Numbered from the stretch's first letter, positions 3,896 to 53,391 are shown. The stretch: DNA of 64,000 bases from an uncultured Anaerolineales bacterium (GCA_964629085.1 CAZVPR010000006.1:21122-85121), one strand, 5' to 3'. Translations and numbers: made by a program. The notes: generated by a model from the letters alone, not told the origin.

Positions 3896-6800
3896 CTATT
3901 TCACGGGAACTGTAAAAGCAAAAATACTCCCCTTCCCTTTGGGTGGGTCTTCAACCCAGATGCGACCCCCATGTGCTTCAACAGCCAGTCGACAAAATGC
4001 CAGCCCAAGACCGGCTCCTTTCCAACGCCCGAATTGACCGGAAATTTGTGAGAATCGCTCGAAGATAATGGCTCGATTTTCATCAGAAATTCCTGGCCCG
4101 TGGTCCCAAACTTGAACTGTTACGAATCCATTATCTTGTGAAACTAATACGCGTACCGTGCTGTTCTCTTCTGAAAACTTGACCGCATTATCCAACAAAT
4201 TGGTGATCACTCGAGAGATTTTATCTTCATCAACAATAATATCCGACAGTTTATCTGGGAATTCACTCTCGACTTGGATGTTGTATTCATCCGAAATCAC
4301 CTCGATATCCATCAACAATTCGGGCACCAATTCTTTTAGATTGACCGTTGATTTATTTAGTTCAATGCGACCAGATTGCATTCGAGCCACGTCTAACAGC
4401 GACATGATCAGACGCATGACTCGTTTGGCACCTCTGCGGGCTACTTTTAATGAACGGTCAACCAGCTCCCCTTGCTGCTCCTGCGGAATCACATCGTCAA
4501 GCAAATCCAGCGCCCCCAACACGGCACTCATTGGAGAGCGCAAATCGTGGATAAGCGCATCCGCTATGGCTTCCCTTTCGCGGTTGACTTTTTGTTCTTC
4601 GGAAACATCACGCCAAATGATCATCCACCCCCGGGCATGTTCGGCCAGTCCACTCACGGGGTAAGCCGTTCGCTCCATGGTTGTTTCTGGTGTGAATTCA
4701 GGGACTTGATACACTTCTTTTGGATAATAAGATGACTCTTTTTCAATAGGGAGCTGTTCAAGGAAACTGGTGATTTCTTGCGGCGCAAAACCCAACCGAT
4801 TGAGAGCATGTTCCGATAGATCACCTAATTTAGTTCCCAACAGGTGTACGCGAGAAAGACCGCTCAAATTGTCCAAAGGCTGATTTGAGAGGCTGATCAG
4901 TCCATCTCGATCAATCATCAAAATGCTTTCAGTAACCGAATTGATGAGCGCGGTCAGTTCTTCTCGTCTTTGAGCAGTTTCAGAAAACAAGAGTGCGTTT
5001 TGAACGGCGATAGTGCCCTGGGATACGATGGTGTCGAGTAGTTTGAAAAGGCTCAAGTCAATTTCATTTTCACAATCACATTCTATGATGACAAATCCCA
5101 GCATTCCGCGAGCAGTACGCATATCAAAATAAAGTGTCTGGAGAGAATCATCTTGAACTGCACTCAAAACCTGGCTCCCAGAATCCCGCGTAAGGTCGTC
5201 AGATCGATTGATGCCAAAGGGCAATGCATGGGCTTCTTGCTCGGCCACAGTTTTCGGCAATCGCTCACCTTTCCCCCCGATTCCGACAGATTGTTTAACG
5301 TAAACCCGCAGCAGTTCATCCCAAATATATATTCCCAATTGAGAGGGCATTACAACTGCAATCAAAGCCTGCCCCAGGTCATCTAAGGCAGTGCTGGCAT
5401 CACGTGCACCAACAAAACGTGCGGCAACCTGAGACAGTGTCGACTGTTCTCGCAAGTGACGCTGAGTTTCTCGAAATAAATTAGCATTTACCAGCGCCAC
5501 AGCGGCCTGATTAGCCAACTGCTCAACGAGAGACTGTTCATGTTTTGAAAACGCATTCAATTGTTCACTTTCAAGTGTTATGATACCGAGAATATTATCC
5601 TCGTGGGATATGGGCACGCTCAACTGCGATAAAGTTTTTCCATTGACAACATCCAGATAATCTTCATCCAAGCGGACATCTCCAATATTTTGGATTTGCC
5701 CTTCCCGCAAGGCCTTTATGGTAATGCCCTTTTCTATGGCCATTTCATCTGGAAGATCATAACCATGTTTAGCCTTTATATGGGCCAGGTTCGATTCGGG
5801 ATCAAAAAGTATTATCGCTCCCAAAGAGACTCCCGTAAATTCGATAACAAAATCCAAAACCAATTGGAATAATCGGTCTGAATGTGTAGCCGCGGAGATT
5901 TCCCGGCCTACGGCTTCCAGGATCGCTAACTGGTGAACTCGGCGAGTCAGTTGCGCATCCGTTGTGGCGTGCAATTGAGCATTGGCAACTGCCAGCGCTG
6001 CCTGGGCAGCAAAGGTTTGTAAGAGCTTGACTTCTTCGGCGGGGAAATCATGAATCGCATTATAAAATGCGGTTAAGAAACCTATTTGTCCTTCGGGCGT
6101 TATCAAGGGGAAATCTGCGAAGGCCTGGATCCCGTCCAAGCGGAAAGCAAGTAATAATTCTTCAGGTAGTGTTGAATTGGACACATCGGAATTTAGTACC
6201 ACATCGCCGGTACGCAAGCACCTCGTTCTGCGGCCTTGTCCAATTGAGAACTCCTTATTCGCAAGAGTAAATCCAGCGGACAAATTATGGGCATGGGCTA
6301 ATTTGATTACATCATCCCCCGGATTGTAGAGGTAAATTGCACTTTTCCCGCCCTCACTGACTTGCGATACAGCTTGGGTTACCTGGGCAACCACTTCTTC
6401 CAATTCCAGGGAAGCAGTAATCTGACTGGTGAGACGATTCAGAGATTCAAGCTGTGTGGCACGATATTGAGACTGTTCATACAGCAAAGCATTTTCAATG
6501 GCAATGCTAACCTGATTGGAAAGCGTAACCAAAAGATCGACATCAAAATCGCTAAATTCGACTTCGGCAAATATCTCAAACACAGCTAAACACCCAATCG
6601 TACGATGAGTGGTAATCAAGGGGACGCCCAACCAGGATTTTGGCATCAACTCCCCTTTTGGGACACCCACGGGGTTAGGGCCGCTCTGGATTTGAGGGGT
6701 AAAAATGATTGCATCGTTCTCTTTTATGACGCGATCCGTCAATCTTTCTGCAATAGGGCGTGGAGGCCAATTTTGACGTTCACCATTCTTGACCGCAAGT

Positions 6801-7702
6801 GGATACCAAATTCTTTGACGCTGATCATCCAAAAGGGCGACATAAAAATTGTTCACCTGGATGACCCGCATAACTTGTTCCTGGATTATTGGCAACAAAT
6901 TATCAAGATCAAGGGATGCCCTTAGCGCCTGGCTAACGTTGCTGAGGGAAGACAGTTCCAGGACCCGTTTTTGCATATCTGCGCGGGTTACTGTAACCCC
7001 ATAAAGCAATACAGCAATGATTACAGGTACAAAAGCTAAAATTAAAACTAAGCGCGTGCCAATGAAGCTATACGCTTCAAGACCAACCAACACCAAAGGA
7101 ATTGGGAGCAATTCAATGACGACCAACAACAATATATCCCCAAAATTAGACATCACTTTAATGCCCCACAGCAAGTATTTATCGAGCCAAAAGAAAAAGC
7201 TGTGCAAAAGTGCGAAAGCTAAGGACGGCGTTAATGCCGCAATCCAAACTCGATCTGATGGAAGAGTGATTATTGGAAACTCAAGGTAGCCAAAAAATGC
7301 AAAGGCAATCGTAATGGCGGACAGATTAAAACCAATTTCAAATCCGAGATCGATCCACCACTCATAACCATGGGACTTCAATTTTATGGAATTTACTTGA
7401 AATACATTTTGGAGACCCAGCCCAATGAATGCCCCAATTGCTGTAACCCACACCGCAGTTGGAACGCCTAAGATCAACGCAGCCCCCAAGGTGATCATGA
7501 ATATTGGCGTTAATTCTGAAAGAAATATATTAAGCGGAAAATTTACCAAAAATGCAACAAGAACAATTGCCCCCACCATGGGCCAGAACTGCGCGACCTG
7601 TATTCCTCCAGACATAGCGCTCAGAGCCAGGATCATCGCCCCGGTGGTTATGATCAGGACGCGAAAATATGTTCGCCGCTCTTGTTGAATTGCTTTCATC
7701 AA
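3896..7702 (-). CDS. Membrane multi-GAF/PAS sensor histidine kinase
   Basis: Multi-TM N-terminus, several GAF repeats (WLGVPL...IGCL, AAQAALAVANA), H-box IHDLRSP, NLLDNAVKF, DHGPG and GAGLGL. Confidence 0.9.
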   Translation of the reverse strand: MMKAIQQERRTYFRVLIITTGAMILALSAMSGGIQVAQFWPMVGAIVLVAFLVNFPLNIFLSELTPIFMITLGAALILGVPTAVWVTAIGAFIGLGLQNVFQVNSIKLKSHGYEWWIDLGFEIGFNLSAITIAFAFFGYLEFPIITLPSDRVWIAALTPSLAFALLHSFFFWLDKYLLWGIKVMSNFGDILLLVVIELLPIPLVLVGLEAYSFIGTRLVLILAFVPVIIAVLLYGVTVTRADMQKRVLELSSLSNVSQALRASLDLDNLLPIIQEQVMRVIQVNNFYVALLDDQRQRIWYPLAVKNGERQNWPPRPIAERLTDRVIKENDAIIFTPQIQSGPNPVGVPKGELMPKSWLGVPLITTHRTIGCLAVFEIFAEVEFSDFDVDLLVTLSNQVSIAIENALLYEQSQYRATQLESLNRLTSQITASLELEEVVAQVTQAVSQVSEGGKSAIYLYNPGDDVIKLAHAHNLSAGFTLANKEFSIGQGRRTRCLRTGDVVLNSDVSNSTLPEELLLAFRLDGIQAFADFPLITPEGQIGFLTAFYNAIHDFPAEEVKLLQTFAAQAALAVANAQLHATTDAQLTRRVHQLAILEAVGREISAATHSDRLFQLVLDFVIEFTGVSLGAIILFDPESNLAHIKAKHGYDLPDEMAIEKGITIKALREGQIQNIGDVRLDEDYLDVVNGKTLSQLSVPISHEDNILGIITLESEQLNAFSKHEQSLVEQLANQAAVALVNANLFRETQRHLREQSTLSQVAARFVGARDASTALDDLGQALIAVVMPSQLGIYIWDELLRVYVKQSVGIGGKGERLPKTVAEQEAHALPFGINRSDDLTRDSGSQVLSAVQDDSLQTLYFDMRTARGMLGFVIIECDCENEIDLSLFKLLDTIVSQGTIAVQNALLFSETAQRREELTALINSVTESILMIDRDGLISLSNQPLDNLSGLSRVHLLGTKLGDLSEHALNRLGFAPQEITSFLEQLPIEKESSYYPKEVYQVPEFTPETTMERTAYPVSGLAEHARGWMIIWRDVSEEQKVNREREAIADALIHDLRSPMSAVLGALDLLDDVIPQEQQGELVDRSLKVARRGAKRVMRLIMSLLDVARMQSGRIELNKSTVNLKELVPELLMDIEVISDEYNIQVESEFPDKLSDIIVDEDKISRVITNLLDNAVKFSEENSTVRVLVSQDNGFVTVQVWDHGPGISDENRAIIFERFSQISGQFGRWKGAGLGLAFCRLAVEAHGGRIWVEDPPKGKGSIFAFTVPVK

Positions 7703-7766
7703 TCTCCTAATTGCATATCTTTCAAATGACCACTCAAATATTCCCGCCCCACATTGATAATTAGCA

Positions 7767-9569
7767 TTAGGGGGTCGGGGTTTCAGTGGCCGAGGTGGTT
7801 GGAGTTGCCGTCACAGGTAAGGGCGTTGGAGTCAGTGATGGAGTAAATGTGATGGTAGGCGTAGGGGTTTCAGTCGGCGGATTGAAATAAAGATCAGCTT
7901 CGTTGCGCCAGTCTTCAGGCACTACCGCTTCTGGGAGATCGAGAAGCGCCTGCCAATCTAATTTTTCTTGTGCAAACTGGCTCAACTGATGTGCGATTTG
8001 GGCCCTGTAATAATATACCTGTGCCAGGTCTTCTTCAGAGTTTGCCAATTCTTCCGTGGCATTAATTTGCAAATATGCGTCACTAATATTTTCAACAGCC
8101 AGGAAAGCTCTGGCGAGGCCCAGGCTTATATCGAATACTCCCGGCGTCAGATTCCGGGCAATGATCAGCTCATTCAATGCATCTTTTGCTTCGCCTACTG
8201 CCAGGGCTGTCAAACCAAAATATTGATGCGCCATAGCTAAAGAATCATCTAGCTCAAAAGCTTTCTCTAAGGCCTCATAAGCGTCTTCGTAGGCTTCTTG
8301 CTCATAATAAATTCTTCCAAGGAGTGCCCAATAACGGGCAGAATCTGGGATGAAATGACCAACGGTTTGGATCGAATTTAGGGCCTCTTCGATTTGACCA
8401 TTTTCGAGATAGGCTTCGGTGAGAATCAAATAGGTCGATAAATCTGTAATGTCCATTTCATACGCCGAAAGCGCATCGACAAGAGCTTGCTCATCTTCAC
8501 CCAGAGCCAATTCAGCTAAGGCCCGAATTTGATAGTATCGTGGATTATCTGCAAGAATTCCTTCTACAAACTGAAGGACTTCCAAAGCCGCTCCAGGGCT
8601 GCCGTGGATTAATTGATAATTTGCAAATTCAAGATGCGCATCGGCATAATTCGGCTCAAGGGCAATTGCTTTTTGAAGATCATTCACAACATTCGCATCG
8701 GGATCTTTCCCCAATTGGGCGAGGGCGCGACCTAAGAACGCCGGCGCAAAATTTTCGTTGATATTCAAGGCTGATTGGTAGGATTGAATCGCAATCTCGT
8801 TTTCACCCATTAGCCGATTGGCTTCCCCAATATAGAAGTAAACATCGGCTGCCTCGGGTTCTTCTCGCAAGACTTGTTCCATGAAGGAGAGCATGGATTG
8901 GTAATCTTCATTTTTATAGGCACGCAAGGCAACTCGAAATGCTTCGCTGCGAGGGTGCGGCGTGTTAACGAACATTGGACGCGGTGTATACGTCGCATCC
9001 AAATTCATCCACAATGGTTGCGGCGTAGCTGTATTCTTGGGTGTGGGCGAGGGCAAATTTGAAGTTGCCGATGGTGTGCTGGTTGGGGTTTCAGTCCAGG
9101 CAATCGGCGTAACGGTCAGTGGCCTGCCAAATATGGACCCTCGAGGGTCAATCATGCCTCCAAAAAGGATACCCAACACCACAATGACCCCGCCCAAAAC
9201 AGCGAATACCCTCACCAAGGGGTTGGCCCAAATTTTGCTAAATCCAGAAACTTCGCCTTCTAAATCAGCGAAATCTACCTCCCAATTTCTCCATTTTGGG
9301 GGCTCCGGGATAAAATCGCTCCCAATCGGGAGATCTCCCAGCAACCGTAAGCCTCGTAGTGCAATTTCATTTTCTGGATCAAGCCGAATAGCTGCTTGCA
9401 AACAGTATATTCGTTCCTTATCGGTATCGACCAAGGAGCTCAGCCATAACCAATAATCTGAATTCTGTTTATCCTCTCTCAAAAGGCGCGTAAAAAGCTC
9501 GCGCGCTTTCACCCGCTGGTTGTGTCTCACCGCATCGAGAGCTTGTTCGTACAACCCGGATTCAGACAT
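7767..9569 (-). CDS. Membrane-anchored tetratricopeptide repeat protein with Pro/Thr-rich linkers
   Basis: N-terminal TPR-like segment, one TM helix, TPT-rich linker, many TPR repeats, TPT-rich tail. Confidence 0.8.
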   Translation of the reverse strand: MSESGLYEQALDAVRHNQRVKARELFTRLLREDKQNSDYWLWLSSLVDTDKERIYCLQAAIRLDPENEIALRGLRLLGDLPIGSDFIPEPPKWRNWEVDFADLEGEVSGFSKIWANPLVRVFAVLGGVIVVLGILFGGMIDPRGSIFGRPLTVTPIAWTETPTSTPSATSNLPSPTPKNTATPQPLWMNLDATYTPRPMFVNTPHPRSEAFRVALRAYKNEDYQSMLSFMEQVLREEPEAADVYFYIGEANRLMGENEIAIQSYQSALNINENFAPAFLGRALAQLGKDPDANVVNDLQKAIALEPNYADAHLEFANYQLIHGSPGAALEVLQFVEGILADNPRYYQIRALAELALGEDEQALVDALSAYEMDITDLSTYLILTEAYLENGQIEEALNSIQTVGHFIPDSARYWALLGRIYYEQEAYEDAYEALEKAFELDDSLAMAHQYFGLTALAVGEAKDALNELIIARNLTPGVFDISLGLARAFLAVENISDAYLQINATEELANSEEDLAQVYYYRAQIAHQLSQFAQEKLDWQALLDLPEAVVPEDWRNEADLYFNPPTETPTPTITFTPSLTPTPLPVTATPTTSATETPTP

Positions 9570-9833
9570 TGTTAATTATGAAGTCTAGCACAACCCCTCC
9601 TGCCACACAAGAAGTCCTGGTAATGCCTAACTATTCTGTAAATTAGTAGAAATTGGTTATTGCAATCGGCATTGAAATTTGTTACATTCAAGATAGGATT
9701 CGACGATAATAACCCAGCACAGAACTGGGCAGGCCTTCAATAACGCGGACGTTTAGTAAAGTGCCCGGCTCGATGATGATCCATTGACGGGTATTTTTTG
9801 TTTCCATTTTGGTTCTCTCCCAAGGAGGCACAA

Positions 9834-14726: not shown

Positions 14727-15584
14727 TCACAGAAAGCGTTTTGAATGATAAAAAGGCTCTAAGCGTTTGCCTGCGCCCAGGATTTCCCCCCGCTCCCACA
14801 TCTGGCGATGGGCTATTGCTTGTTCAGCACGCCCGGTTTTGTCTTGTTGCCATGTTTTACGCAGAAAGGCGTAATCATAGAGGATCATCCGCAATTGTTT
14901 TTCGTCCAAGCTGTATCCTGGGCGCAAACTCCAATAACACTGAACCGCATCCTTGACAAGCAGAGGGGGTAATTGCAAATTAGAAACCAGAGGCTTGGCT
15001 GTACTCAAAAAAACGGACGCAGGAGGAAAATCTTCTCCATATAGTGCAAGCAAAGCTTCATGATAGGTATTTGCGCCAGAATTATTTGCAGCTTCGAGTA
15101 GCCATTCCCATGGTGAACCCAAATCGGGAACCACATAGAACCAAAGTGTGTGAGCATCATCTGCGGTCGTTTCAGCAATTAGTTTTTCCCCAATATCTTT
15201 AAGCTGAGGAATGTACTGACTGCAAGCCATTCTCACCCGCCAACCTGAACTCCTATAATGTTCAATGGCCACAGATCCAGCTATCCGCTCTTCAACTTGA
15301 TCCCATATATCTTTGTGGGTAGTGGTTGCCAGAAATTGGGTTGGATCTTTCAGGGGTACAAAAAGATGTTTGATCCCATGTGTGAAGAACAATTCGACAC
15401 ATCGATGCAACTCCCACCAAATCCAATTGACAAAATCATCTCCAGAAATTGGAACATCTGCAAGCTCAGCCGCGCTGCGCGCCCCCGAAACAGCATAAAT
15501 AAGGGTTTTAGGTGCATGGGGACGAACTTCCACCAAAGATGCTTCAGAGAATTCTCGTAGAGAGGGAGTAGGTTCTGTTTTCAT
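14727..15584 (-). CDS. Rv3378c-like (tuberculosinyl transferase / cis-prenyltransferase fold) protein, paralog B
   Basis: Recalled similarity to M. tuberculosis Rv3378c: EF...PK, LFFTHGIKHL, LYGE, LRMILYDYAFLR (Rv3378c LRRILYDHIYLR) and C-terminal ILGAG...FY. Clear paralog of 18198-19076. Confidence 0.72.
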   Translation of the reverse strand: MKTEPTPSLREFSEASLVEVRPHAPKTLIYAVSGARSAAELADVPISGDDFVNWIWWELHRCVELFFTHGIKHLFVPLKDPTQFLATTTHKDIWDQVEERIAGSVAIEHYRSSGWRVRMACSQYIPQLKDIGEKLIAETTADDAHTLWFYVVPDLGSPWEWLLEAANNSGANTYHEALLALYGEDFPPASVFLSTAKPLVSNLQLPPLLVKDAVQCYWSLRPGYSLDEKQLRMILYDYAFLRKTWQQDKTGRAEQAIAHRQMWERGEILGAGKRLEPFYHSKRFL

Positions 15585-16491: not shown

Positions 16492-17745
16492 ATGGGAACA
16501 CAAACAGATGTTCAACTTGCCGTAGAAAGTCAAGTGCAAATGATCAAGCAATTGATTGCTGGTCTTAGGCCACAAATTCAAAAGGCCATCAGTGGAGATG
16601 TTGCCAATAATTTGGAAAGGATTTATTTAGTAGGGTGCGGCGATTCCTATTACGCATCGTTGGGTGTGCGCATGTTTTTTGAGAAATATATAGGAATACC
16701 AACGGAGCCTGTGCCAGCAATGCAATTTTCCCGCTATATTGTTGATCATATCCCTAAAAACTCGCTAGTGATTGCAGTATCAAATGGGGGCCGGGTTTCG
16801 CGCACGATAGAGGCGGTAGTTCGCGCTCGAAAGCGAGGAATTCTCACAATTGCTGCTACGGGTTATCCGGATAGACCGTTGGCACAAAAGGCCGATGCTA
16901 CGATCCTTGGAAATTTACCGAATGTGCGTGAAGCCATGGACGCGTTAAAAAAAGCTGTCGAATCGGGGAAATTATCCAGCAATGATATGCAGCTATCAAA
17001 ACCAGGGGCAGCCTTGCGGGTTGCGGAGGTTTTAGGCATAGGCGGCGATGTAAGTTTGCTGCTGCTCAGTTTGGCAGCCTACATGGCAAGCATTGTCACA
17101 TTGTATTTACTGGGCATTCACATCGCAAAGCTGCGCGGTGCGCAAAACGAGAATGAGGCATCAAAACTGGAAAATGAAATGTTACGATTTGCCGAAATTC
17201 TTTACCCAACTACCTCTCTGAATACACCAAAAGCAAATGCCTTAGCAAAAACCTTTGAGCAACACGACACATTCATAATTTTGGGCAGCGGCCCAAGTTA
17301 TGCTACCGCTCTGGTTGCGGCAGCCAAATTGTTCGAATTACCACAGCTAAATGGCGTTCCACAAGAATTGGAAGAGTGGGCCCATCAGCAATTCTTCTTC
17401 ACCCGGCCCGGAAAAAGCATAATCTTTGTCATAGTGCCGCCAGGCAATAGCCGCGATCGAGCAATTGAGCAGATCAAAGGCATGAAAGAGCTAGGAGCCA
17501 CAGTGATAGCAATATGCGATGCTGCAGATGACGAGATACTCGCATTAGCCGATGATGCTATGCCAATACAGGGACAAATGCTAGAAGAATTCACACCATT
17601 GGCGTATGTGATTCCTGGTCAATTGTTCGCGTTTTCCATCTTGCATTCACGGGGACAGCCACCAATGCCACCACCACTAGATTTTCAACGGTTGATGGAA
17701 ATCAATTTCAAACAAATCTATCAAAGTAACATTTGGGATGAGTAA
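16492..17745 (+). CDS. Double SIS-domain sugar-phosphate isomerase/deglycase-like protein (GlmS/FrlB/AgaS-like)
   Basis: IYLVGCGDS, AVSNGGRVSRTIEA, LGSGPSYATA and EEWAH motifs. No glutaminase domain. Starts 11 nt after the Ham1-like stop. Confidence 0.8.
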   Translation: MGTQTDVQLAVESQVQMIKQLIAGLRPQIQKAISGDVANNLERIYLVGCGDSYYASLGVRMFFEKYIGIPTEPVPAMQFSRYIVDHIPKNSLVIAVSNGGRVSRTIEAVVRARKRGILTIAATGYPDRPLAQKADATILGNLPNVREAMDALKKAVESGKLSSNDMQLSKPGAALRVAEVLGIGGDVSLLLLSLAAYMASIVTLYLLGIHIAKLRGAQNENEASKLENEMLRFAEILYPTTSLNTPKANALAKTFEQHDTFIILGSGPSYATALVAAAKLFELPQLNGVPQELEEWAHQQFFFTRPGKSIIFVIVPPGNSRDRAIEQIKGMKELGATVIAICDAADDEILALADDAMPIQGQMLEEFTPLAYVIPGQLFAFSILHSRGQPPMPPPLDFQRLMEINFKQIYQSNIWDE

Positions 17746-17854
17746 AATTCCCGCCCCTCGTTCCCTCGATGGCAGCAGTTTTCTTGACCGCCTAATAACT
17801 CTCAAACATTAAAATTTATACAGAATTCTTACTCGGAGGGATAAACACTGGCGA

Positions 17855-18229
17855 TCATACTGGTGATGCGAAAATTTTTGCGACGATATTTCGTAATTCC
17901 GCAAATCCAATTGGTTTTTGCTTAGCAAATGCAATCCTGGGATCTGTGGCGGCATTTTCTATCCATTCACCAAATGTTGATACAACAATAAGTTTAGCGT
18001 GATTCAAGCGTCCATCAGATTTGATATATTCCAATACATGATGCCCCGATTTAATGGTCAGGTGTAATTCCAGGATCACTATTTCTGGAATATTGTGTTG
18101 CAGCCAATCTATTGCATCCCTACCATTGGTCACCAATTCAACGTTGAAATTTTCTTCTAGTGCAATTTTGTAGGCATATGCTAAATTAGTATCCCCTTCA
18201 ACGAGAAGTATAACTGGCTTTATTTTCAT
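17855..18229 (-). CDS. Single-domain receiver lacking the phospho-acceptor Asp (pseudo-receiver)
   Basis: CheY-like pattern ILLVEGD...IVILELHL...VVST...KPIG, with Glu at the canonical Asp site. Confidence 0.8.
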   Translation of the reverse strand: MKIKPVILLVEGDTNLAYAYKIALEENFNVELVTNGRDAIDWLQHNIPEIVILELHLTIKSGHHVLEYIKSDGRLNHAKLIVVSTFGEWIENAATDPRIAFAKQKPIGFAELRNIVAKIFASPV

Positions 18230-19076
18230 TATCGTTCTCTTTAGCCTCTGCAGGAAAGACTGGATACCAAAAGGGGCCGACTCTTTTCCCTAAACCCATT
18301 ATCGCATCAGTGTGCATTTCATCCAAAGTCAAATCGGTCTGTTCATCAACTTCAGGATTTCGTGTTATCACAAAATCGTATAGTATCTTTAGGATATCAA
18401 TTTCGTCAGTTAGATAGCCTGGTTTCTGAAGCCAATAGGTACTCGCGAATTCTGCCATCAAAATGGGAGGGCAAACCACAGCGGAGATTACTGGTTTGCC
18501 AAAGCCAACGAATAATTCCACAGGAGGGATTTCCTGGCCAAATTGTTTCTGAATGAGTTCGGCCTGGGTCGTCGCGCCTGGCCGTGCTGCTTTCAGCAAG
18601 TTTTCATAATGGACGCCATAGGTAGAAGTTGCAAAAAAATAAACTGTAACTGAATACTCTTCGTCTGAGAACGTATCATTCAGATTATTTCCAGTAGTTG
18701 CTAATTCTTGAATGTGATCATCCCAAATTAAACAACATTTCCAACCTAATTTTTTGAAAATCGCAATAGATTTTTCGCTGGCTAGGCCCTTCGCAACCAT
18801 GGAAACCAGGCCTTCGCGGTATCCCGAGGTAGTTTCAGCCCATTGTGTTGGAACTATGGCATGTGTAATAATGTGTTGAACCCCATACTTGGCAAATAAT
18901 GAAAAACACTTGATCATCTGCGCAAAAGACCAAGATACATATTCGTCTTGGTCCATTATGCCCGCCAGTGCAGCAGCTCTGCGCGTGCCCCCCGCAGCGA
19001 ATATGATAGATTTTGGAGCTAAAAGCGATATTTGTTCAACAGGAGTATCTCGGAACTCATCAAAAGAAATTTTCAT
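18198..19076 (-). CDS. Rv3378c-like (tuberculosinyl transferase / cis-prenyltransferase fold) protein, paralog A
   Basis: ISFDEFRDTPV...PK...GGTRR (Rv3378c VSEKEFLDLPL...PK...DGTRR), LFVGFGK (MFIGFGR), LKILYD and IMGLG...FWY. Located in an operon with a class II cyclase. Confidence 0.78.
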   Translation of the reverse strand: MKISFDEFRDTPVEQISLLAPKSIIFAAGGTRRAAALAGIMDQDEYVSWSFAQMIKCFSLFAKYGVQHIITHAIVPTQWAETTSGYREGLVSMVAKGLASEKSIAIFKKLGWKCCLIWDDHIQELATTGNNLNDTFSDEEYSVTVYFFATSTYGVHYENLLKAARPGATTQAELIQKQFGQEIPPVELFVGFGKPVISAVVCPPILMAEFASTYWLQKPGYLTDEIDILKILYDFVITRNPEVDEQTDLTLDEMHTDAIMGLGKRVGPFWYPVFPAEAKENDNENKASYTSR

Positions 19077-20443
19077 GAATCGCCATCTAAAGGGTGATAC
19101 GATTGAGGAAGAGACACCGTGAAAATGGAACCTTTTCCTTTTTCAGATTTAAGCTCTATCTTGCCACCATACCGAGAGACAATATCGTCAATGATTGCCA
19201 AACCAAGACCTGAACCGGGTATTGTCGATTGGCTTGCTTCCTGGCCTCGATAAAATCTTTCAAAAATGTGGGGAATATCCTCATCGTGAATTCCGTCTCC
19301 GCTATCCTCCACCTGGATGATGACCAAATCATCCTTAATGTCAGTGCTCACCTTTATAAAACCCTCGGATGTGTACCGAATACCGTTTACAACAAGATTA
19401 TTTAAGATTTGCAGCACATGTTTAGAATCTGCTTGCAATGGAGGCATATCTTCCTGCAAACTTTGCGTTAGTTCCAATCCCTTTGATTCTGCCTGGAGAA
19501 TATTGGATTGAACAACTTGCTGAACCAGGGTATTCAAATCAACGGATTGAATGGAAACATCCTTTTCTTCGGAAGATTCTAAACGGGATAAATCAAGGAT
19601 ATCTTCAAGCAAACCATCTAATTGATCAGATACTTCAACAAGCACATCCAGGTATCGTTTATTCTTATCCGGATTGCTGCTTAATTGCAGCATTTCTAGA
19701 TAGATTTTTATATTGCTAACTGGGGTGCGAAGCTCATGGGAAACATCCGATACAAATTTTGATTTCAAAAGATCCAGGGTTTTTAATTCATCGTTGGCTT
19801 CAGCCAACTCTATATTTGCATTTTTCAGTTCTTTTGTGCGCTCAATTACCAGTGAGTCCAGTCTATCGGTTATTTCCTGCTCTTTCCTTAAAGCTAGCGT
19901 GCGGTCCACAATTGCTTTTTCAAGATTGTTGGCGGCAAGCCAGGCAACAAAGGCAAATGCAAAAAATGCGATCATGCCAAACGGGGAAAATTCCCAATCA
20001 ATTTGCACTATCCCCCCAAACCACATGTAAAGGTGGACGACGGTCAAATAGGTGGCCACAATAAAGCTAGCATAGTTTCGAAGAACAAAGCTGGCCACCA
20101 TAATAGGGAAAATAAACATAAACAGAGATCGCCCGACAAGTATTTCCCGTGGTTCGTCAGCAACCAGAAAACTCATGGACAGAACGAACACAAATAAACT
20201 ACCTGCCAGCACCACATGCCCTTTGCGGTTTATCATGTAGAGAATGAGTATGATCAAGTTTATGACAACCAAAACTAAATTAAATGTCGCCGTCTGCTCT
20301 AGCACATTTAGCAGTTCAGTGATTATTATGAGCAATAACGAAAATCCTGTAATAACCCCGGTCCCAATGATGATTCTGTTTAACAACTCAAATCTCAATT
20401 GGTCTAAGCCATATGATGTGTCAAACAGTCTTTCACGATTCAT
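19073..20443 (-). CDS. Intramembrane-sensing histidine kinase
   Basis: About 5-6 closely spaced TM helices with no large extracytoplasmic domain, coiled coil, SHELRTP H-box, NLVVNGIRYT, DSGDG, FERFYR and GSGLGL. Confidence 0.9.
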   Translation of the reverse strand: MNRERLFDTSYGLDQLRFELLNRIIIGTGVITGFSLLLIIITELLNVLEQTATFNLVLVVINLIILILYMINRKGHVVLAGSLFVFVLSMSFLVADEPREILVGRSLFMFIFPIMVASFVLRNYASFIVATYLTVVHLYMWFGGIVQIDWEFSPFGMIAFFAFAFVAWLAANNLEKAIVDRTLALRKEQEITDRLDSLVIERTKELKNANIELAEANDELKTLDLLKSKFVSDVSHELRTPVSNIKIYLEMLQLSSNPDKNKRYLDVLVEVSDQLDGLLEDILDLSRLESSEEKDVSIQSVDLNTLVQQVVQSNILQAESKGLELTQSLQEDMPPLQADSKHVLQILNNLVVNGIRYTSEGFIKVSTDIKDDLVIIQVEDSGDGIHDEDIPHIFERFYRGQEASQSTIPGSGLGLAIIDDIVSRYGGKIELKSEKGKGSIFTVSLPQSYHPLDGDS

Positions 20444-20451
20444 AAATCCTC

Positions 20452-22008
20452 CTATGAATCCAACAATAGCGCGCTAAGGATGGCCGAACGGACAACCAGT
20501 ATCGGTGAATAAAGACATTTTCCAATCCACAAGGGCGAATAGGGAGGATCAATATGATCTTTTAACCAAGTCACGCCTCGCTCAATTACCCCCTTACGGA
20601 TCTGTTTACCACTGCGACGGGCTACCATCAACGCTTGTAAGCAATAAGCCGTTTCTTCCGCTGTGGAGCCATAATATCCCCAGGACCCATCAGATCTTTG
20701 GGTTTGGCACAACCATTCAATCGCTGGCTCAGTCAAAGCGTCAAAGAATCCATTGGCAGCGATAATGGCGTGGCTGGTGGGGTAATACGGTGAAGAATGC
20801 CATTTGTCGAACCAAAAACTCCGCGCAAACCTGGTTCCTTGTAAGAATTCACTAATTTTGACAACCGAGGGATGATCTGAGGGCAAACCAAATTTCCTCA
20901 ATGCCCCCAGAACATGAATGTTGGCGCTAATGGACGGATTGGCTTCTATGGCGAAACACCTGAAATAATCTCTTTCCTCATATGCGAGCAGCGTTTCGAT
21001 ATCCACATCTCTGCCAAAATGCAACAGAACTTCAGCAATAACACTTGTTTCATCGCCATCTTTTGGTATGTAATCCGCAGCAAAGCCAACCCCCTTTCCA
21101 GGAACCCACCCCGATTCGATGAAATCAAGGTGAGGTTGACATAATTTCAGAATATCAGCATCCAGATTATCCAGCAGGGATAAATTCCAAAGTGCCCAGC
21201 CTCGCTCAAATATACCAAACGGGGCAACATCAGGTATACCCCCATTGGTGCCATTCCCATTTGCAACCTGACGTAGATAATTGATTGCTGCAGGATCACC
21301 CCGTTTACCGTAAACCGCGAAGTGAGCAGTCGCAGATGGGCTAAACGCGACTGAGCCATTGGACTCCTGCAAGCAATCGATGTCCAATAAGTCCAGGTGT
21401 TCCACCCCGGCCATCTCGGCAGAAAACGCTAAAGTCACAAAACGATTTATCTTTCCGGTTGGTAATTTCTTGATTTTAGCTTCACGATGAGCCATTAGGC
21501 GGTCTATGGCATCATCGCTCGTTCTGCGGATGGAGCTATCGTCGGGTGTACCATCCTTAAAATTATAGATTGTTGTTTTCGAATTAAGGAAATTATCGTT
21601 TTCTCTGCGAATAACCCCCAATTCTTTTGCCTCTTTCAACAAGGTTGGAGCCAACAACTCGAAACCAATCGTTTCACCAACTGTATCTGAGTTCAATCCC
21701 TTTATGGCCATGTCCAGACCCAGGCGTGACCGGCTTAAGCATTCTCGATCACACTTATCACCAAAGCGTGCCAATGCAGTCATCGCCGACAGCGTACTAA
21801 TCAGACGATCATGGAAATACCGAGGTTGATCAGCGCCCCAGGTTCCATCTGGCAATTGGTGTTCTCGCAACCATTCCATCGCTTGGTGCCCTATGGGCTC
21901 ATCCAATTCGACCAAACGCGCGACCCATGCCGTATCATATGCAGTACTTCTCATGCGGCCCGGTCCGATATTTGTCAGGAGTTCGTGAGTGAGTGCTTTG
22001 TAATCCAT
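20452..22008 (-). CDS. Class II (protonation-initiated) terpene cyclase, bacterial CPS / Rv3377c-like beta-gamma didomain
   Basis: STAYDTAWVARL, QW motifs (HQLPDGTWG, QRSDGSWG), IGFELL, SPSATA, DGDET (DxDD-like), DKWHSSPYYPT, AEETAY and LWIGKCLYSP. Probable start at the ATG at 22008 (track start 22062). Confidence 0.9.
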   Translation of the reverse strand: MDYKALTHELLTNIGPGRMRSTAYDTAWVARLVELDEPIGHQAMEWLREHQLPDGTWGADQPRYFHDRLISTLSAMTALARFGDKCDRECLSRSRLGLDMAIKGLNSDTVGETIGFELLAPTLLKEAKELGVIRRENDNFLNSKTTIYNFKDGTPDDSSIRRTSDDAIDRLMAHREAKIKKLPTGKINRFVTLAFSAEMAGVEHLDLLDIDCLQESNGSVAFSPSATAHFAVYGKRGDPAAINYLRQVANGNGTNGGIPDVAPFGIFERGWALWNLSLLDNLDADILKLCQPHLDFIESGWVPGKGVGFAADYIPKDGDETSVIAEVLLHFGRDVDIETLLAYEERDYFRCFAIEANPSISANIHVLGALRKFGLPSDHPSVVKISEFLQGTRFARSFWFDKWHSSPYYPTSHAIIAANGFFDALTEPAIEWLCQTQRSDGSWGYYGSTAEETAYCLQALMVARRSGKQIRKGVIERGVTWLKDHIDPPYSPLWIGKCLYSPILVVRSAILSALLLDS

Positions 22009-22442
22009 TCGTCTATGCTCGATTATGTTTATCCTTTGATATTGAATTCTATATTTGAACAAGGTCCGGAGTTAATTGGGTAATAGGGCGTCTGAAGGGT
22101 ACTATTCCCTCTCGAAAAAATTGCCACCCGAATAAGGCAACCGGAACCAAGGCATTCCCATGGGAGGCAAATTATCATACATTAATCAATACTTCACAAC
22201 AAAACTTGGACCAGTCGTTTCATTATTCCATTCCCACAGGTCAAACCATGACTGATAGATCTCCCAGTATGATTATTACCAATTAGTACGGTTCGAGAAT
22301 TTTAACATAGAAAGTTTCTAAAAATCAGGTAAAATTACATATCTGTAAGGAACATCAATCATAACCTTTGATTAGAATTTCTGGAGTATTCCAACAATTA
22401 TTCTCTCCAGTATTCGAAATACTCACGAAAAGGCGAAAATAC

Positions 22443-22805
22443 ATGAGCAATTTGAATGCATTAGTTATTGAGGACGACAAAAATCTTGCATTGGCATTTG
22501 CTGAAGCGCTTGAAGAAGCTGGATATGAGGCTGAAGTTATTTATGATGGTCGTACAGCCTTAAAGCGATTGGAAGAAGTAACCCCTTCAATCGTGATTCT
22601 TGATCTTCACATTCCGCATGTCAAAGGGGACAAAGTTTTAGAATACATGCGCTCTGAAAATCATCTCAAAGATGTGCGCGTGATTGTCGCTACAGCAGAC
22701 AGTTCACGAGCAGCTCAGTTGGGCAATAAAGCAGATTTGGTATTACTCAAACCTGTTGGCTACCGTCAATTAAAAGACCTTGCTGCTCGATTAAAACCAA
22801 AATAA
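22443..22805 (+). CDS. Single-domain response regulator (canonical receiver)
   Basis: LVIEDD...IVILDLHIP...VATA...KPVG. ATG at 22443. Divergent from the cyclase operon. Confidence 0.88.
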   Translation: MSNLNALVIEDDKNLALAFAEALEEAGYEAEVIYDGRTALKRLEEVTPSIVILDLHIPHVKGDKVLEYMRSENHLKDVRVIVATADSSRAAQLGNKADLVLLKPVGYRQLKDLAARLKPK

Positions 22806-32991: not shown

Positions 32992-33221
32992 TTTTTTTAT
33001 TGCCGATTAGATAATTTGGGAAGGAAATTGAATTAGTGGCACAAAATAAATCGGGATGCTGGCAAGACTTTGGCGAGACTCTCCAGCAACCCGGGCAAAC
33101 CCTGACGACCTCAGGTCGTGCTAAGGGCTATTTTTAAAAGGTAACATAAATGGATTTTATGTCAATAATAAAAATCATTGCAGATCAAGTACGATCAAAT
33201 TCCAAAAGGAGGCTGATTGTT

Positions 33222-33908
33222 ATGAAGAAAAACAATCAGGGGCAAAGCTTTACTGAGTTGGCGCTAATTTTCCCCATATTATTGTTGATGATTGCAGGAT
33301 TTGTTGAAGTTGCCTTTTTTTCCTATCACTATTTGGAAGCTATCGACTTGACCAGAGAGGCAGCACGATATGCATCCGTGCGCGATCCCTTTGAATTAAA
33401 TGCTCCCGTTAGTGGATTACCTACCGCGGCCTGCAACGATTCAGACTTTCACTTTTACTTTGACACAGCCTGCGTAATACTTTACTCGAGTGAGAACCAA
33501 AGCATTTCGTTTGACCCCCAGATCGATGACATCACGATTTCTGTTTTCACTGTCGCAAACAATTCGGTTTCTGACCGTTGGCCAAACGATGGGGACGGAG
33601 TCTGGGCAATTTCGACATCAAGCGACCTATGGACTGGCGCCGAAAACTGGACGAAAGATTGTCAAGGGAACACTATTTCATTCCAACCCAATGTCACCAA
33701 TGCCGATGTTCAAGCCTCCTTTCAAAGTGGAGCACCTACAAGTCGGGGGTACGTGCTTGTAGAGTTTTATTATTGCCACCATCAGGTACTCAATCTTCCG
33801 ATATTATCTGATTTTATCCCCACTCCTCTTCGTATTCGAGCCTACTCGTTTATGCCTGCCCCAGAAGCCCTGCCAACACCTACCCCCATTCCGGTGGCAT
33901 CACCCTAA
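33222..33908 (+). CDS. TadE-like minor pilin
   Basis: AAAGGAGG RBS and prepilin motif GQSFTELALIFPILLL...REAARYAS. Confidence 0.85.
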   Translation: MKKNNQGQSFTELALIFPILLLMIAGFVEVAFFSYHYLEAIDLTREAARYASVRDPFELNAPVSGLPTAACNDSDFHFYFDTACVILYSSENQSISFDPQIDDITISVFTVANNSVSDRWPNDGDGVWAISTSSDLWTGAENWTKDCQGNTISFQPNVTNADVQASFQSGAPTSRGYVLVEFYYCHHQVLNLPILSDFIPTPLRIRAYSFMPAPEALPTPTPIPVASP

Positions 33909-33938
33909 TTATGGTGAAGGATATTCAAAGCCTGTTTA

Positions 33939-35525
33939 TTGGATGCAATCATGAGGAAATTTAAACGTCGAAAAGAAAAACAGATGTTCAGGCAGTTATT
34001 CGTTGAGAAATTCCGGAGAAATGGTACATCATCACCTGAGCTCGAAATGCAAAGCGGGCAGGTTTTGGTTATGTTCGTGATCTCATTCATGGCCATAGTG
34101 GCTTTTGTCGGAATCGTGACAGATGCTGGGGCGCTTTATGTAACCTATACTCAATTGAAACGAGCAGTTGACGCAGCCGCGGTTGCAGCCGCAAATAATC
34201 TCAAAAATCCAGGACTGACATACTCAGAACGCAAGACTCGGATGACCGAAGCAGCCAGAGAAATGCTTGATATGCATAATATTGCCAACATCAATTTATT
34301 AGAGGTGTACACATGCAATGACAGCACCTTACCAGCGGAGTTTTCAAATGATTGCCTCAGCTTTGGCCCAGACCCGAGAAAATTAGCCTGGGTTCAAGCA
34401 ACTCAAGAATCGCCTGTATATTTTTTGAGCTTATTTGGCATTCAAGATGTTCCCCTTACGGTCAGATCAATCGGTGAGGCTGCCACGATTGACCTGGTCA
34501 TTGTGATCGACTCATCTGAATCTATGGGCTCAGAAACAGCAGGATATGGGCCAAATTTTGATCCAAATTTATCATGCAATCCTACGAATACATGTGAACC
34601 CCTGTTGACTGCAAAAAATGCTGCCAAGGTTTTAGTAGACAATATGTTTGAAGGGTACGATCAAATTGCGATAGTAAGTTTCGATTTCGACGCAAAAATG
34701 GAAATCAATCTGACCAACTCACCATATTCAGGTGTCGGTAGTATAAAAGCAGCCATCGATAACATTAAAGTTCATGATGACACACCCGTCCCTCTCGATC
34801 CGGTGACTCTAAATCCAGTAGATTCTGGGACCTATAACCCTCTGAATGTTGATGTTGTCAATCCCGGCGATCTTCCCAACCCTCATCCCAACAATGCGGT
34901 GCTATCGACATGCACCGGATGTGCAATTCGAGAAGCGGGGAAGATTTTACTAACTCATGGTCGCCGCGATAGCGTTTGGGTGATCGTATTCCTTTCGGAT
35001 GGCTCAACCAATGTGAGCGACATCCCCCCCAAAGTGGATAGCATTTACCCAAACGGATTTTGCGGTGGCGCGATTGGTGAAAGCCTGTGGATTAACCCTA
35101 TGTGCAGAGATGCCAATCCTGCCACCAGACATTGTGGACCCTATCATTCTGATATCTCCGAATGTGCCCCCGGCGCAACGTGGGCTGTTACCAGTCCCCC
35201 ATATGATGTAGAGGATTATGCCCGAGATATGATCGACCGGGTTGCCCTTTGGGACGCGCCAGACAATGAGCCAATCACTGCTAATCAAGTCACAATTTAC
35301 AGTATTGGCTTGGGTCACGCCGCGGTAGCCCCTCATTATGCAGGTGAAGAAATGCTGCGCTACATGGCCAATGTGGGTGAAAACGGCTCCAGACTAAACG
35401 ACCCCTGCGATGGGGTGCCGCATCAGAAACACTGCGGCAATTATTATTACTCGCCAGATGCTACTCATTTGGCAAAAATCTTCGAGGATATTGCTGGCCG
35501 TATCTTTTCACGCATCAGCAGGTAA
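33939..35525 (+). CDS. TadG-like pilus protein with vWA domain
   Basis: SGQVLVMF...DAGALY...AVDAAAVAAA Tad N-terminus, MIDAS-like VIDSSESM and VFLSDG, IYSIGLG. Start uncertain (33939, 33951 or 33984). Confidence 0.85.
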   Translation: MDAIMRKFKRRKEKQMFRQLFVEKFRRNGTSSPELEMQSGQVLVMFVISFMAIVAFVGIVTDAGALYVTYTQLKRAVDAAAVAAANNLKNPGLTYSERKTRMTEAAREMLDMHNIANINLLEVYTCNDSTLPAEFSNDCLSFGPDPRKLAWVQATQESPVYFLSLFGIQDVPLTVRSIGEAATIDLVIVIDSSESMGSETAGYGPNFDPNLSCNPTNTCEPLLTAKNAAKVLVDNMFEGYDQIAIVSFDFDAKMEINLTNSPYSGVGSIKAAIDNIKVHDDTPVPLDPVTLNPVDSGTYNPLNVDVVNPGDLPNPHPNNAVLSTCTGCAIREAGKILLTHGRRDSVWVIVFLSDGSTNVSDIPPKVDSIYPNGFCGGAIGESLWINPMCRDANPATRHCGPYHSDISECAPGATWAVTSPPYDVEDYARDMIDRVALWDAPDNEPITANQVTIYSIGLGHAAVAPHYAGEEMLRYMANVGENGSRLNDPCDGVPHQKHCGNYYYSPDATHLAKIFEDIAGRIFSRISR

Positions 35526-35578
35526 ACAGTCCTGTATGAGCGCATGGTTATGCCAGGGATACCATACAGGGTAAAACT

Positions 35579-52945: not shown

Positions 52946-53391
52946 TTAATAACTCCGGGCAATTTGGAAAGATTAAACCAATACTCAGCCAATACTTTGA
53001 CTGTTTCCGATAAACCATCAAAAGAAACCGGTTTGGCAATATAACTTGATGCCCCATTTGAATAGGCATGATGGATATCCTCAGGTGAACTCGAGGTAGT
53101 TAACACAACTATGGGAACATGCCACAACTCAGGGGATCTTTTAATTTCCACCAGGGCTTCTCTGCCACTCATGCGTGGCATATTTAAATCGAGAAGAATG
53201 AGATCTGGTTTGGGAGCCAAAGAAGCATCAACATATTTTCCCTCCAACAGCAGGTAATCCATCAAATCCTGACCATCTATTACTTGGCGGAGATTTATAT
53301 TCAGATCTAATTCTTCGAATGCCTCTTGGATTAAATAGCGATCGTCAGAATCGTCGTCGACATGCAAGATCATAAACGAGTTAATCCTCAT
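52942..53391 (-). CDS. Single-domain response regulator (Rcp1-like)
   Basis: VDDDSDD, ILLDLNMPRMSG, VVLTTS and KPV...EYWF. Confidence 0.92.
   Translation of the reverse strand: MRINSFMILHVDDDSDDRYLIQEAFEELDLNINLRQVIDGQDLMDYLLLEGKYVDASLAPKPDLILLDLNMPRMSGREALVEIKRSPELWHVPIVVLTTSSSPEDIHHAYSNGASSYIAKPVSFDGLSETVKVLAEYWFNLSKLPGVIK

Follow-up and report, generated by a model that had tools for sequence, protein, structure and literature searches.

Why should a membrane-bound histidine kinase be encoded between the two enzymes of a putative terpenoid pathway, and does the kinase belong to that pathway? The question is raised by an operon in a 64,000-nucleotide stretch of DNA from an uncultured Anaerolineales bacterium (GCA_964629085.1, CAZVPR010000006.1:21122-85121), called the window below, whose source is a marine Chloroflexota bacterium (four DNA runs of one marine-metagenome study). 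Reading of the open reading frames (ORFs) gave four minus-strand genes at 17855-22008, in the order cyclase (CYC), histidine kinase (HK), Rv3378c-like gene (RvL) and receiver (REC). CYC (20452-22008) encodes 518 aa from an ATG start, with a longer TTG start possible at 22062; HK (19073-20443), RvL (18198-19076) and REC (17855-18229) encode 456, 292 and 124 aa, respectively. Pfam places SQHop_cyclase_N/C on the first protein, HisKA and HATPase_c on the second and Response_reg on the fourth; the 292-aa RvL has no Pfam match. The stop codon of CYC (TAG) falls within the ribosome-binding site of HK (junction at 20444-20457), inside TAGGAGGATTTATG (20441-20454) and 8 nt ahead of the HK ATG, the HK stop and the RvL start share a common ATGA, and RvL and REC overlap by 32 nt (18198-18229). 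A preliminary description of this locus had called the four genes tightly coupled, and both the coordinates and the three junctions agree with it.

Association of the enzymes with a membrane sensor family

The genome to which the window belongs (5.39 Mb) contains 77 kinase cores and 138 receiver ORFs. It has one cyclase of the Rv3377c type, only two Rv3378c-like genes and only two solid members of the family to which the HK sensor domain belongs, and the sole CYC, both Rv3378c-like genes and one of these two sensor-family members lie within 8 kb. Because kinases and receivers are plentiful but CYC, RvL and sensor-family genes are rare in this genome, the adjacency of the three is not a matter of chance.

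The arrangement recurs elsewhere in the order. Scanning one genome per species, we obtained 72 RvL-relative loci, of which 71 have an RvL ORF (the fragment L074 was dropped); within the DNA covered, CYC is present in 62 of the 71, mostly directly upstream of RvL. The window's order CYC-HK-RvL is repeated in genome contigs L071, L062 and L015, and partly in L041, whose contig ends inside the kinase gene. The HK ortholog of L071 is 44% identical, and CYC, HK and RvL there overlap one another; the HK match is full-length in L062 and nearly so in L015 (residues 73-446). No receiver follows RvL in L071 or L015. Metagenome contigs add HK-RvL (L117), HK-RvL-REC (L118), RvL-REC (L122) and CYC-HK-RvL with a full-length HK ortholog (L126). 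When the sensor domain alone was searched against 401 Chloroflexota genomes, 18 genomes matched, including 14 of the 24 of a sister family in the same order. Thirteen of these 14 loci, and one locus of another family, were compared. RvL-CYC-HK-REC joined by start/stop overlaps is found in 11 of the 13 and HK-REC alone in one; in L113 (7950-10028) HK and receiver are fused into a 692-aa protein directly after CYC, and no RvL was found in the 16.5 kb examined. The sister-family cyclases are about 48% identical to the window CYC and match Rv3377c at E 4.6e-137. Their RvL is of the Rv3378c-proper type (NGTRRWF, E 3e-72, full length), a difference which implies that one and the same cyclase-kinase-receiver core is associated with two lineages of the Rv3378c family. 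This synteny check, in which the same sensor kinase, usually with a receiver, was found beside cyclase homologs in many genomes, upholds the association that the preliminary description had proposed.

Beyond the Anaerolineales the enzymes are accompanied by signalling genes in other layouts. In Herpetosiphon aurantiacus DSM 785 (L068, 3580-10273), Haur_2145-2147 (6418-9729) lie between co-directional signalling genes: upstream are a 768-aa hybrid kinase (multi-transmembrane N-terminus, HisKA, HATPase and two receivers) and a 148-aa receiver, and downstream is a 175-aa receiver. Six more Herpetosiphonaceae loci carry a hybrid kinase, a receiver, CYC and RvL, five of them with a trailing receiver, and the order in that family is hybrid HK-REC-CYC-RvL-methyltransferase-REC (seven loci, six with the trailing REC). 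Other layouts are a convergent PAS-HK-REC in Caldilineae, a sensor-GAF protein downstream in nine loci and a sensor-MCP protein in L008. Overall, the sensor is linked to the enzymes through at least seven gene orders, with kinase, hybrid kinase, GAF, MCP and, more weakly, GGDEF-EAL outputs; the differing output domains of the linked sensor proteins were confirmed by Pfam. To compare the sensors themselves, the Anaerolineales sensor profile was aligned by hhalign with the N-termini of proteins near CYC/RvL in the other groups. The Herpetosiphon hybrid kinases scored 93.3% (E 2.8e-7 over 176 columns), the Caldilinea PAS-HK-REC proteins of about 770 aa 91.9%, the LB3 PAS-HK 87.1%, the sensor-GAF proteins of about 457 aa 94.8%, the 826-aa multi-GAF proteins 97.4% and the sensor-MCP protein of L008 91.5%, while three unrelated polytopic transmembrane (TM) controls scored at most 1.1%.

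For counting, a hidden Markov model (HMM) of the sensor was built from 30 seeds and a sensor was called at 50 bits or more; 21 of the 30 seeds came from the same 72 loci, so that the counts are partly circular and the hhalign comparison serves as the independent check. By this measure 36 of 71 loci have a sensor protein no more than 1.5 kb from the CYC/RvL core, and 39 of 71 have one within 3 kb; of the 38 loci whose flanks extend 3 kb or more to either side, 27 have one within 3 kb. With genes between CYC and RvL counted as near and that interval kept outside the denominator, sensor density per 100 kb is 11.9 up to 3 kb from the core and 1.1 farther out (about 11-fold), compared with 0.037 across the window's genome. 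The corresponding values are 9.3, 0.8 and 1.43 for kinase cores and 12.8, 1.9 and 2.56 for receivers.

Besides the circularity of these counts, several results tell against a general link. In 32 of the 71 loci, many of them truncated, there is no sensor within 3 kb, and the Roseiflexaceae/Chloroflexales clade of RvL mostly has no sensor neighbour. Three groups align only weakly with the sensor profile, namely the Caldilinea kinases of about 900 aa (40.7%), the GGDEF-EAL protein of L039 (41.0%) and a second GAF group (33.8%), and the sensor-PAS protein of L036 (0.3%) was rejected as a sensor homolog. Taken together, we regard the link between the enzymes and the sensor family as well supported and very probably real.

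Predicted functions of the encoded proteins

CYC shows full-length homology to class II cyclases of known structure (6vpt, E 3e-122; PtmT2, 5bp8, E 5e-47; plant CPS, E ~1e-28), of which 6VPT represents MtHPS/Rv3377c, the halimadienyl diphosphate synthase of M. tuberculosis, as presented in an excerpt of PMC9585517. Its acid motif DGDE ('IPKDGDETSV') aligns to D293-C-D295-T296 of 6vpt, a motif whose fourth position is D, E or T among relatives. The Tyr in 'GKCLYSP' aligns to Y479 of 6vpt ('AKTLYCS'), which the same excerpt gives as the catalytic base responsible for the halimadienyl product. Judged from sequence, CYC is a class II diterpene cyclase and a close homolog of Rv3377c, with product chemistry that is predicted only.

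The assignment of the 292-aa protein as Rv3378c-like, made in the preliminary description from the DNA alone, is borne out by both sequence and fold. RvL matches the Rv3378c structures by sequence at E 1.9e-8 (residues 4-240 against 5-252), and with an AlphaFold2 (AF2) model built on 37 homologs (pLDDT 87.0) Rv3378c entries fill the first ten Foldseek ranks (E 2e-14 to 1e-13, TM-score 0.68-0.73), followed by cis-prenyltransferases, whose fold the two share. The two proteins are about 18% identical in the structural alignment. The family of RvL has at least 82 proteins and includes the H. aurantiacus Haur_2146 locus (35% identity to RvL), to whose clade RvL belongs. The P-loop Asp of Rv3378c (DGTRR(W)) is absent from RvL and from the family consensus (GGTRR); since the characterised Haur_2146 reads SGGSRR and also lacks it, this Asp marks the Rv3378c-proper clade and not the wider family. 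Tyr46 and Tyr86 of RvL align to Y51 and Y90 of Rv3378c, the residues mutated in PDB entries 3wqn and 4kt8, and are invariant in a 22-sequence clade alignment. Haur_2146 is described, in the portion of PMC8131916 that deals with it, as the kolavelool synthase, hydrolysing an allylic diphosphate. The preliminary description had left the product as a lipophilic terpenoid or a terpene nucleoside. Because RvL falls in the Haur_2146 (GG[ST]RR) clade and not in Rv3378c-proper, we down-weighted a nucleoside resembling 1-tuberculosinyladenosine (1-TbAd) and consider it less likely than an alcohol or another adduct.

The RvL copy in the operon is itself unusual. The near-invariant C-terminal motif of the GG[ST]RR clade, R.TW..DK.GR, is lost at residues 241-249 (RNPEVDEQTD, with a 7-residue deletion), where pLDDT falls below 50, and among the loci compared this loss is found in the window's genome only. 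A second gene, RvL2 (14727-15584, minus strand, 285 aa), lies 2.3 kb beyond the operon, is 29% identical to RvL and keeps the motif. RvL2 groups in the tree with the RvL genes placed after the sensor kinase in L015, L062 and L041, and RvL falls in a separate clade, so the duplication is old. In both clades the majority of the genes come after a sensor kinase in other genomes (all three partners of RvL2; L071, L117 and L118 in the clade of RvL). The copy in the operon may be neofunctionalised or decaying. Two RvL genes also stand in tandem in L053. Genes of the GG[ST]RR clade occur in metagenome-assembled genomes (MAGs) labelled as non-Chloroflexota, namely L009, L026 and L055 (Polyangia), L061 (Chroococcidiopsidaceae), L056 (Nostocoides) and L003 (Gammaproteobacteria); CYC is beside RvL in L009, L026, L055 and L061, and none was found in L056 or in the 1-kb L003. 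These occurrences could reflect transfer or binning error.

HK has strong matches to HisKA (2.7e-18) and HATPase_c (5.4e-27), and the H-box SHELRTP and the N and G boxes are intact in the translation; a coiled coil joins this core to a sensor domain (residues 1-205, 19829-20443). An AF2 model of the sensor (pLDDT 90.6, pTM 0.81) has six TM helices, loops of at most 11 residues, no extracytoplasmic domain and one long exit helix, in keeping with the purely intramembrane sensor that had been predicted. The window sensor has no Pfam match at E ≤ 1, MASE families included; the sister-family kinase of L102 reaches 18.8 bits on MASE6, below the cutoff of 27.4, and conversely the true MASE11 proteins of the window's genome reach just 20.9 bits on the sensor HMM. 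A language-model search with the sensor returned unnamed Chloroflexota clusters (0.96-0.97), then MASE6/7/8/11 (0.93-0.95). Foldseek with the sensor model found nothing at E ≤ 0.001 and no solved relative. The only near full-length matches of an exhaustive structural aligner were the 6-TM domains of membrane nucleotide cyclases, namely AC9 (6r3q, Z 11.3, 192 residues aligned), ImcA (8wcn, Z 10.5, 193), AC5 (8sl3, Z 9.7, 201) and Rv1625c (7yzi, Z 8.9, 164), and Z values below about 13 for helical bundles may reflect a common arrangement alone. By profile the family numbers 14,093 representatives when E ≤ 0.001 is required and 6,255 when E ≤ 1e-10 is; the proteins among the 150 best matches listed are 187-2310 aa long, and almost all carry the domain at their N-terminus. 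The sensor is, on this sequence and model evidence, a member of a large, unclassified MASE-like family. Five other genomes have 3-14 members each. The second solid member in the window's genome (69 bits) lies in L116 (contig C98, 4006-13628) among five TM-plus-GAF proteins encoded one after another, of which two carry Pfam MASE11 and one the window-type sensor; no terpene gene is nearby.

The operon ends with a pseudo-receiver, as had been described, but among the loci compared this is a peculiarity of one genome. REC is recognised by Pfam (Response_reg, 34.9 bits; cutoff 30.2) and keeps K105-P106, but the phospho-acceptor Asp is replaced by E54, one residue of the acidic pair by G12 (EGD for EDD) and the usual Pro by T58. 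Its orthologs in L118 and L122 keep the Asp, which is present in all 11 receivers compared with it (REC2, described below, and 10 linked ones), and Glu-for-Asp was seen in the window's genome only, among the loci compared. As the closest orthologs keep the Asp, the loss is recent. Like the aspartate-less receiver (ALR) domains treated in part of PMC4395418, REC is a receiver fold without the phospho-acceptor Asp, and unlike them it has a recent, lineage-specific loss. A canonical single-domain receiver, REC2 (22368-22805, plus strand; Response_reg 1.5e-16), is divergent from and upstream of CYC. It keeps the DD, D, T and K residues, is 34% identical to REC and matches the receivers encoded after HK in the operons of the sister family better than REC does (37-54% identity). 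Because REC with Glu54 cannot be phosphorylated, the signal probably passes to REC2, which is the most likely candidate phospho-partner of HK; REC may be a phospho-independent adaptor or decoy.

The neighbouring Ham1, SIS-domain, Ig-like and 692-aa membrane proteins have no match of 50 bits or more in the 72 related loci and therefore lie outside it. The 171-nt leader upstream of CYC contains a terminator-like hairpin with a T-run (22141-22123, minus strand) between a promoter-like site (22199-22171) and the CYC start. We do not claim a riboswitch or attenuator, since the folding of the leader does not surpass that of shuffled sequences (z +2.0) and Rfam has no match over 17600-22500 at E ≤ 1; promoter and terminator scans were near the shuffle expectation (22 against 18.4 and 13 against 8.0, respectively) and were not used as evidence. 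Elsewhere the window is dense in very large PAS/GAF signalling proteins (3896-7702, 38635-44169, 45734-48589, 50432-57346 and 58876-63942), among them an 1844-aa REC-PAS-GAF-HD protein and kinases of 1268, 1321 and 1688 aa, and it carries a Tad-pilus-like gene set (TadE, Tad/VWA) at 33150-38569.

Proposed diterpenoid sensing and its alternatives

These observations provide the basis for a model in which a two-step diterpenoid pathway is tied to a membrane signalling pair. By homology, CYC would protonate geranylgeranyl diphosphate to give a bicyclic diphosphate of halimadienyl or labdane type, and RvL would ionise this diphosphate and add water or another nucleophile, yielding a lipophilic diterpenoid that partitions into the membrane. 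We predict that diterpenoid made on the spot, or an intermediate from late in the pathway, would be bound by the 6-TM bundle inside the bilayer. Binding would switch the exit helix and then the kinase, so that a phosphorelay acting through a single-domain receiver would follow the level of terpenoid; in the window's genome the signal would pass to the divergent REC2, with the in-operon REC acting as an adaptor or decoy. The layout is of the autoinducer type, in that a synthase and a cognate-type membrane kinase are co-encoded with conserved synteny, and the resulting circuit would be one with a self-produced ligand, of the nisin/agr/comQXPA type. What favours diterpenoid sensing is that one sensor domain with interchangeable outputs (chemotaxis, GAF) is kept beside the same two enzymes, which is the pattern of a ligand and its receptor. 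We judge that the sensor binding a locally made diterpenoid falls only a little short of an even chance.

Several findings hold this estimate down, in addition to the caution that attaches to the Z scores. With 14,093 representatives in the family, most of its members cannot be terpenoid receptors. In a FastTree phylogeny of 46 sensor domains the terpene-linked sensors are not monophyletic but are intermixed with paralogs of the same genomes that have no such link; we therefore gave up the notion of one dedicated lineage of receptors throughout the phylum, and the only coherent group is an Anaerolineales clade (the window, L071, L015, L062, the sister-family loci and L115). The linked receivers, both stand-alone and fused to kinases, have no DNA-binding or other output domain, and the operon has no exporter gene. 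Finally, RvL (motif) and REC (Asp) of the window are both atypical and are flanked by the intact paralogs RvL2 and REC2, so that part of this copy of the operon may be decaying.

The size of the family and the scatter of the linked sensors would be expected of a generic membrane-state sensor that has been recruited repeatedly. Under such cluster-situated regulation the 6-TM kinase would sense the state of the membrane or envelope (fluidity, thickness or stress) and tune the production of a membrane-active diterpenoid, making the terpenoid the output of the circuit. Kinases of the DesK and LiaS/BceS types sense within the membrane, the window sensor likewise has no extracytoplasmic domain, and cyclic terpenoids are established membrane modulators. 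The part of PMC12324236 that treats triterpenoids presents them in this role. On this explanation one would look for control of the operon, but no linked receiver has a DNA-binding output, so direct transcriptional control is not evident; MCP and GAF-only outputs beside the same enzymes are hard to read as regulators of biosynthesis; and the kinase is translationally coupled inside the pathway, not merely beside it. We consider membrane-state sensing less probable than diterpenoid sensing, but a credible rival to it.

That same translational coupling would suit stoichiometric co-production of enzyme and sensor, as might be expected if the 6-TM domain held the diterpenoid tightly as a prosthetic ligand and the holo-sensor detected another cue. 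Retinal is such a cofactor in sensory rhodopsins, and its biosynthetic genes cluster with the opsin; the fusion of one sensor domain to many outputs also recalls the rhodopsin-kinase and rhodopsin-cyclase fusions. The alignment of 27 sensors, however, has no invariant column and one column conserved at 90% or more, and thus no invariant polar or Lys-type anchor, most members of the sensor family are unlinked to terpene genes, and a halimane or clerodane alcohol is not expected to give chromophore chemistry. Supply of a cofactor is accordingly improbable in our estimation. Least probable is an ordinary secondary-metabolite cluster whose two-component neighbours are incidental and have no functional link to it. 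A genome so rich in kinases and receivers, with several giant PAS/GAF kinases in the window itself, would readily supply such neighbours, but this explanation was already disfavoured by a linkage that is conserved across classes and in at least seven arrangements, with sensors about 11-fold denser near the core than in the outer flanks, and by the gathering of the sole CYC, both RvL genes and one of two solid sensors within 8 kb, with start/stop overlaps joining the genes.

Diterpenoids of bacteria are mostly regarded as antibiotics, as virulence lipids or as orphan natural products, and we know of no bacterial receptor for a diterpenoid. Extending diterpenoid sensing from this operon, we speculate, more tentatively, that Chloroflexota have phylum-wide 6-TM receptors for self-made diterpenoids, in which the products of CYC/RvL pairs would serve as membrane-soluble signals and the receptors would feed phosphorelays, GAF modules, chemotaxis and possibly cyclic di-GMP turnover. 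If true, it would constitute the first diterpenoid ligand-receptor system in bacteria, and the enzyme pair behind 1-TbAd synthesis in M. tuberculosis would gain a native, non-pathogenic function. The linkage gives a candidate ligand class for a very large unclassified sensor family and suggests a physiological role, open to testing, for pathways of the Rv3377c/Rv3378c type in non-pathogens.

Comparison with known systems

In the literature searched, no system links a kinase or sensor to cyclase/Rv3378c-type genes; the terpenoid-sensor link is undescribed there, consistent with the novelty claimed in the preliminary description. The nearest relative with a known product is the O-methylkolavelool cluster Haur_2145/2146/2147 of H. 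aurantiacus, reportedly described by Nakano et al. in 2015. In both loci CYC is paired with an Rv3378c-fold enzyme of the GG[ST]RR clade and flanked by a homologous 6-TM sensor and single-domain receivers. The Herpetosiphon kinase, unlike that of the window, is upstream and a hybrid (HK-REC-REC), a methyltransferase is present that the window operon does not have, and the two cyclases are distant (29% identity). The cluster is cited in PMC8131916 and PMC5704754, and the portions of these accounts that cite it make no mention of its kinase or receivers. The linkage is a reason to revisit this published cluster together with its flanking kinase and receivers.

The M. tuberculosis Rv3377c-Rv3378c pair, which makes 1-TbAd, shares with the window a close cyclase homolog and a second enzyme with the same fold and both Tyr positions, and differs from it in the P-loop Asp (DGTRR in Rv3378c, GGTRR in RvL). 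An excerpt of PMC11476799 describes that locus as constitutively transcribed and as having neither a kinase nor a receiver associated with it, and orthologs of Rv3376-Rv3378c are said there to have been sought outside mycobacteria without success. Adjacent full-length homologs of both 1-TbAd genes, with the sensor kinase and a receiver, are found in the Anaerolineales sister-family loci L102 (5570-10042), whose operon also has a GT87-family membrane protein, and L103-L112. The Rv3378c-type family comprises 1,831 proteins at E ≤ 1e-10, many of them named 'adenosine tuberculosinyltransferase' by JGI automatic annotation. Such environmental homologs of both genes bear on the origin of the M. tuberculosis locus.

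Among sensors, the window domain resembles DesK and LiaS/BceS in consisting of TM helices with minimal loops, and unlike them it has six TM helices, belongs to a different, unclassified family and is tied to terpenoid enzymes, not to desaturase or ABC-transporter genes. The membrane domains of AC9, AC5 and Rv1625c and the MASE-type sensors likewise have a six-helix bundle running into a long cytosolic helix; the window sensor differs from these class III adenylyl cyclase and MASE domains in having no significant sequence or Foldseek match to them. The agrBDCA, comQXPA (isoprenylated ComX, polytopic ComP) and nisRK/spaRK systems are operons of a synthase and a sensor kinase with a self-produced ligand. 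The proposed ligand of the window system, unlike theirs, would be a free diterpenoid with no precursor peptide or exporter, and the receivers have no DNA-binding output. Like agrBDCA, comQXPA and nisRK, the window operon co-encodes biosynthesis, a polytopic kinase and a receiver, and comQXPA further resembles it in having an isoprenoid-handling enzyme.

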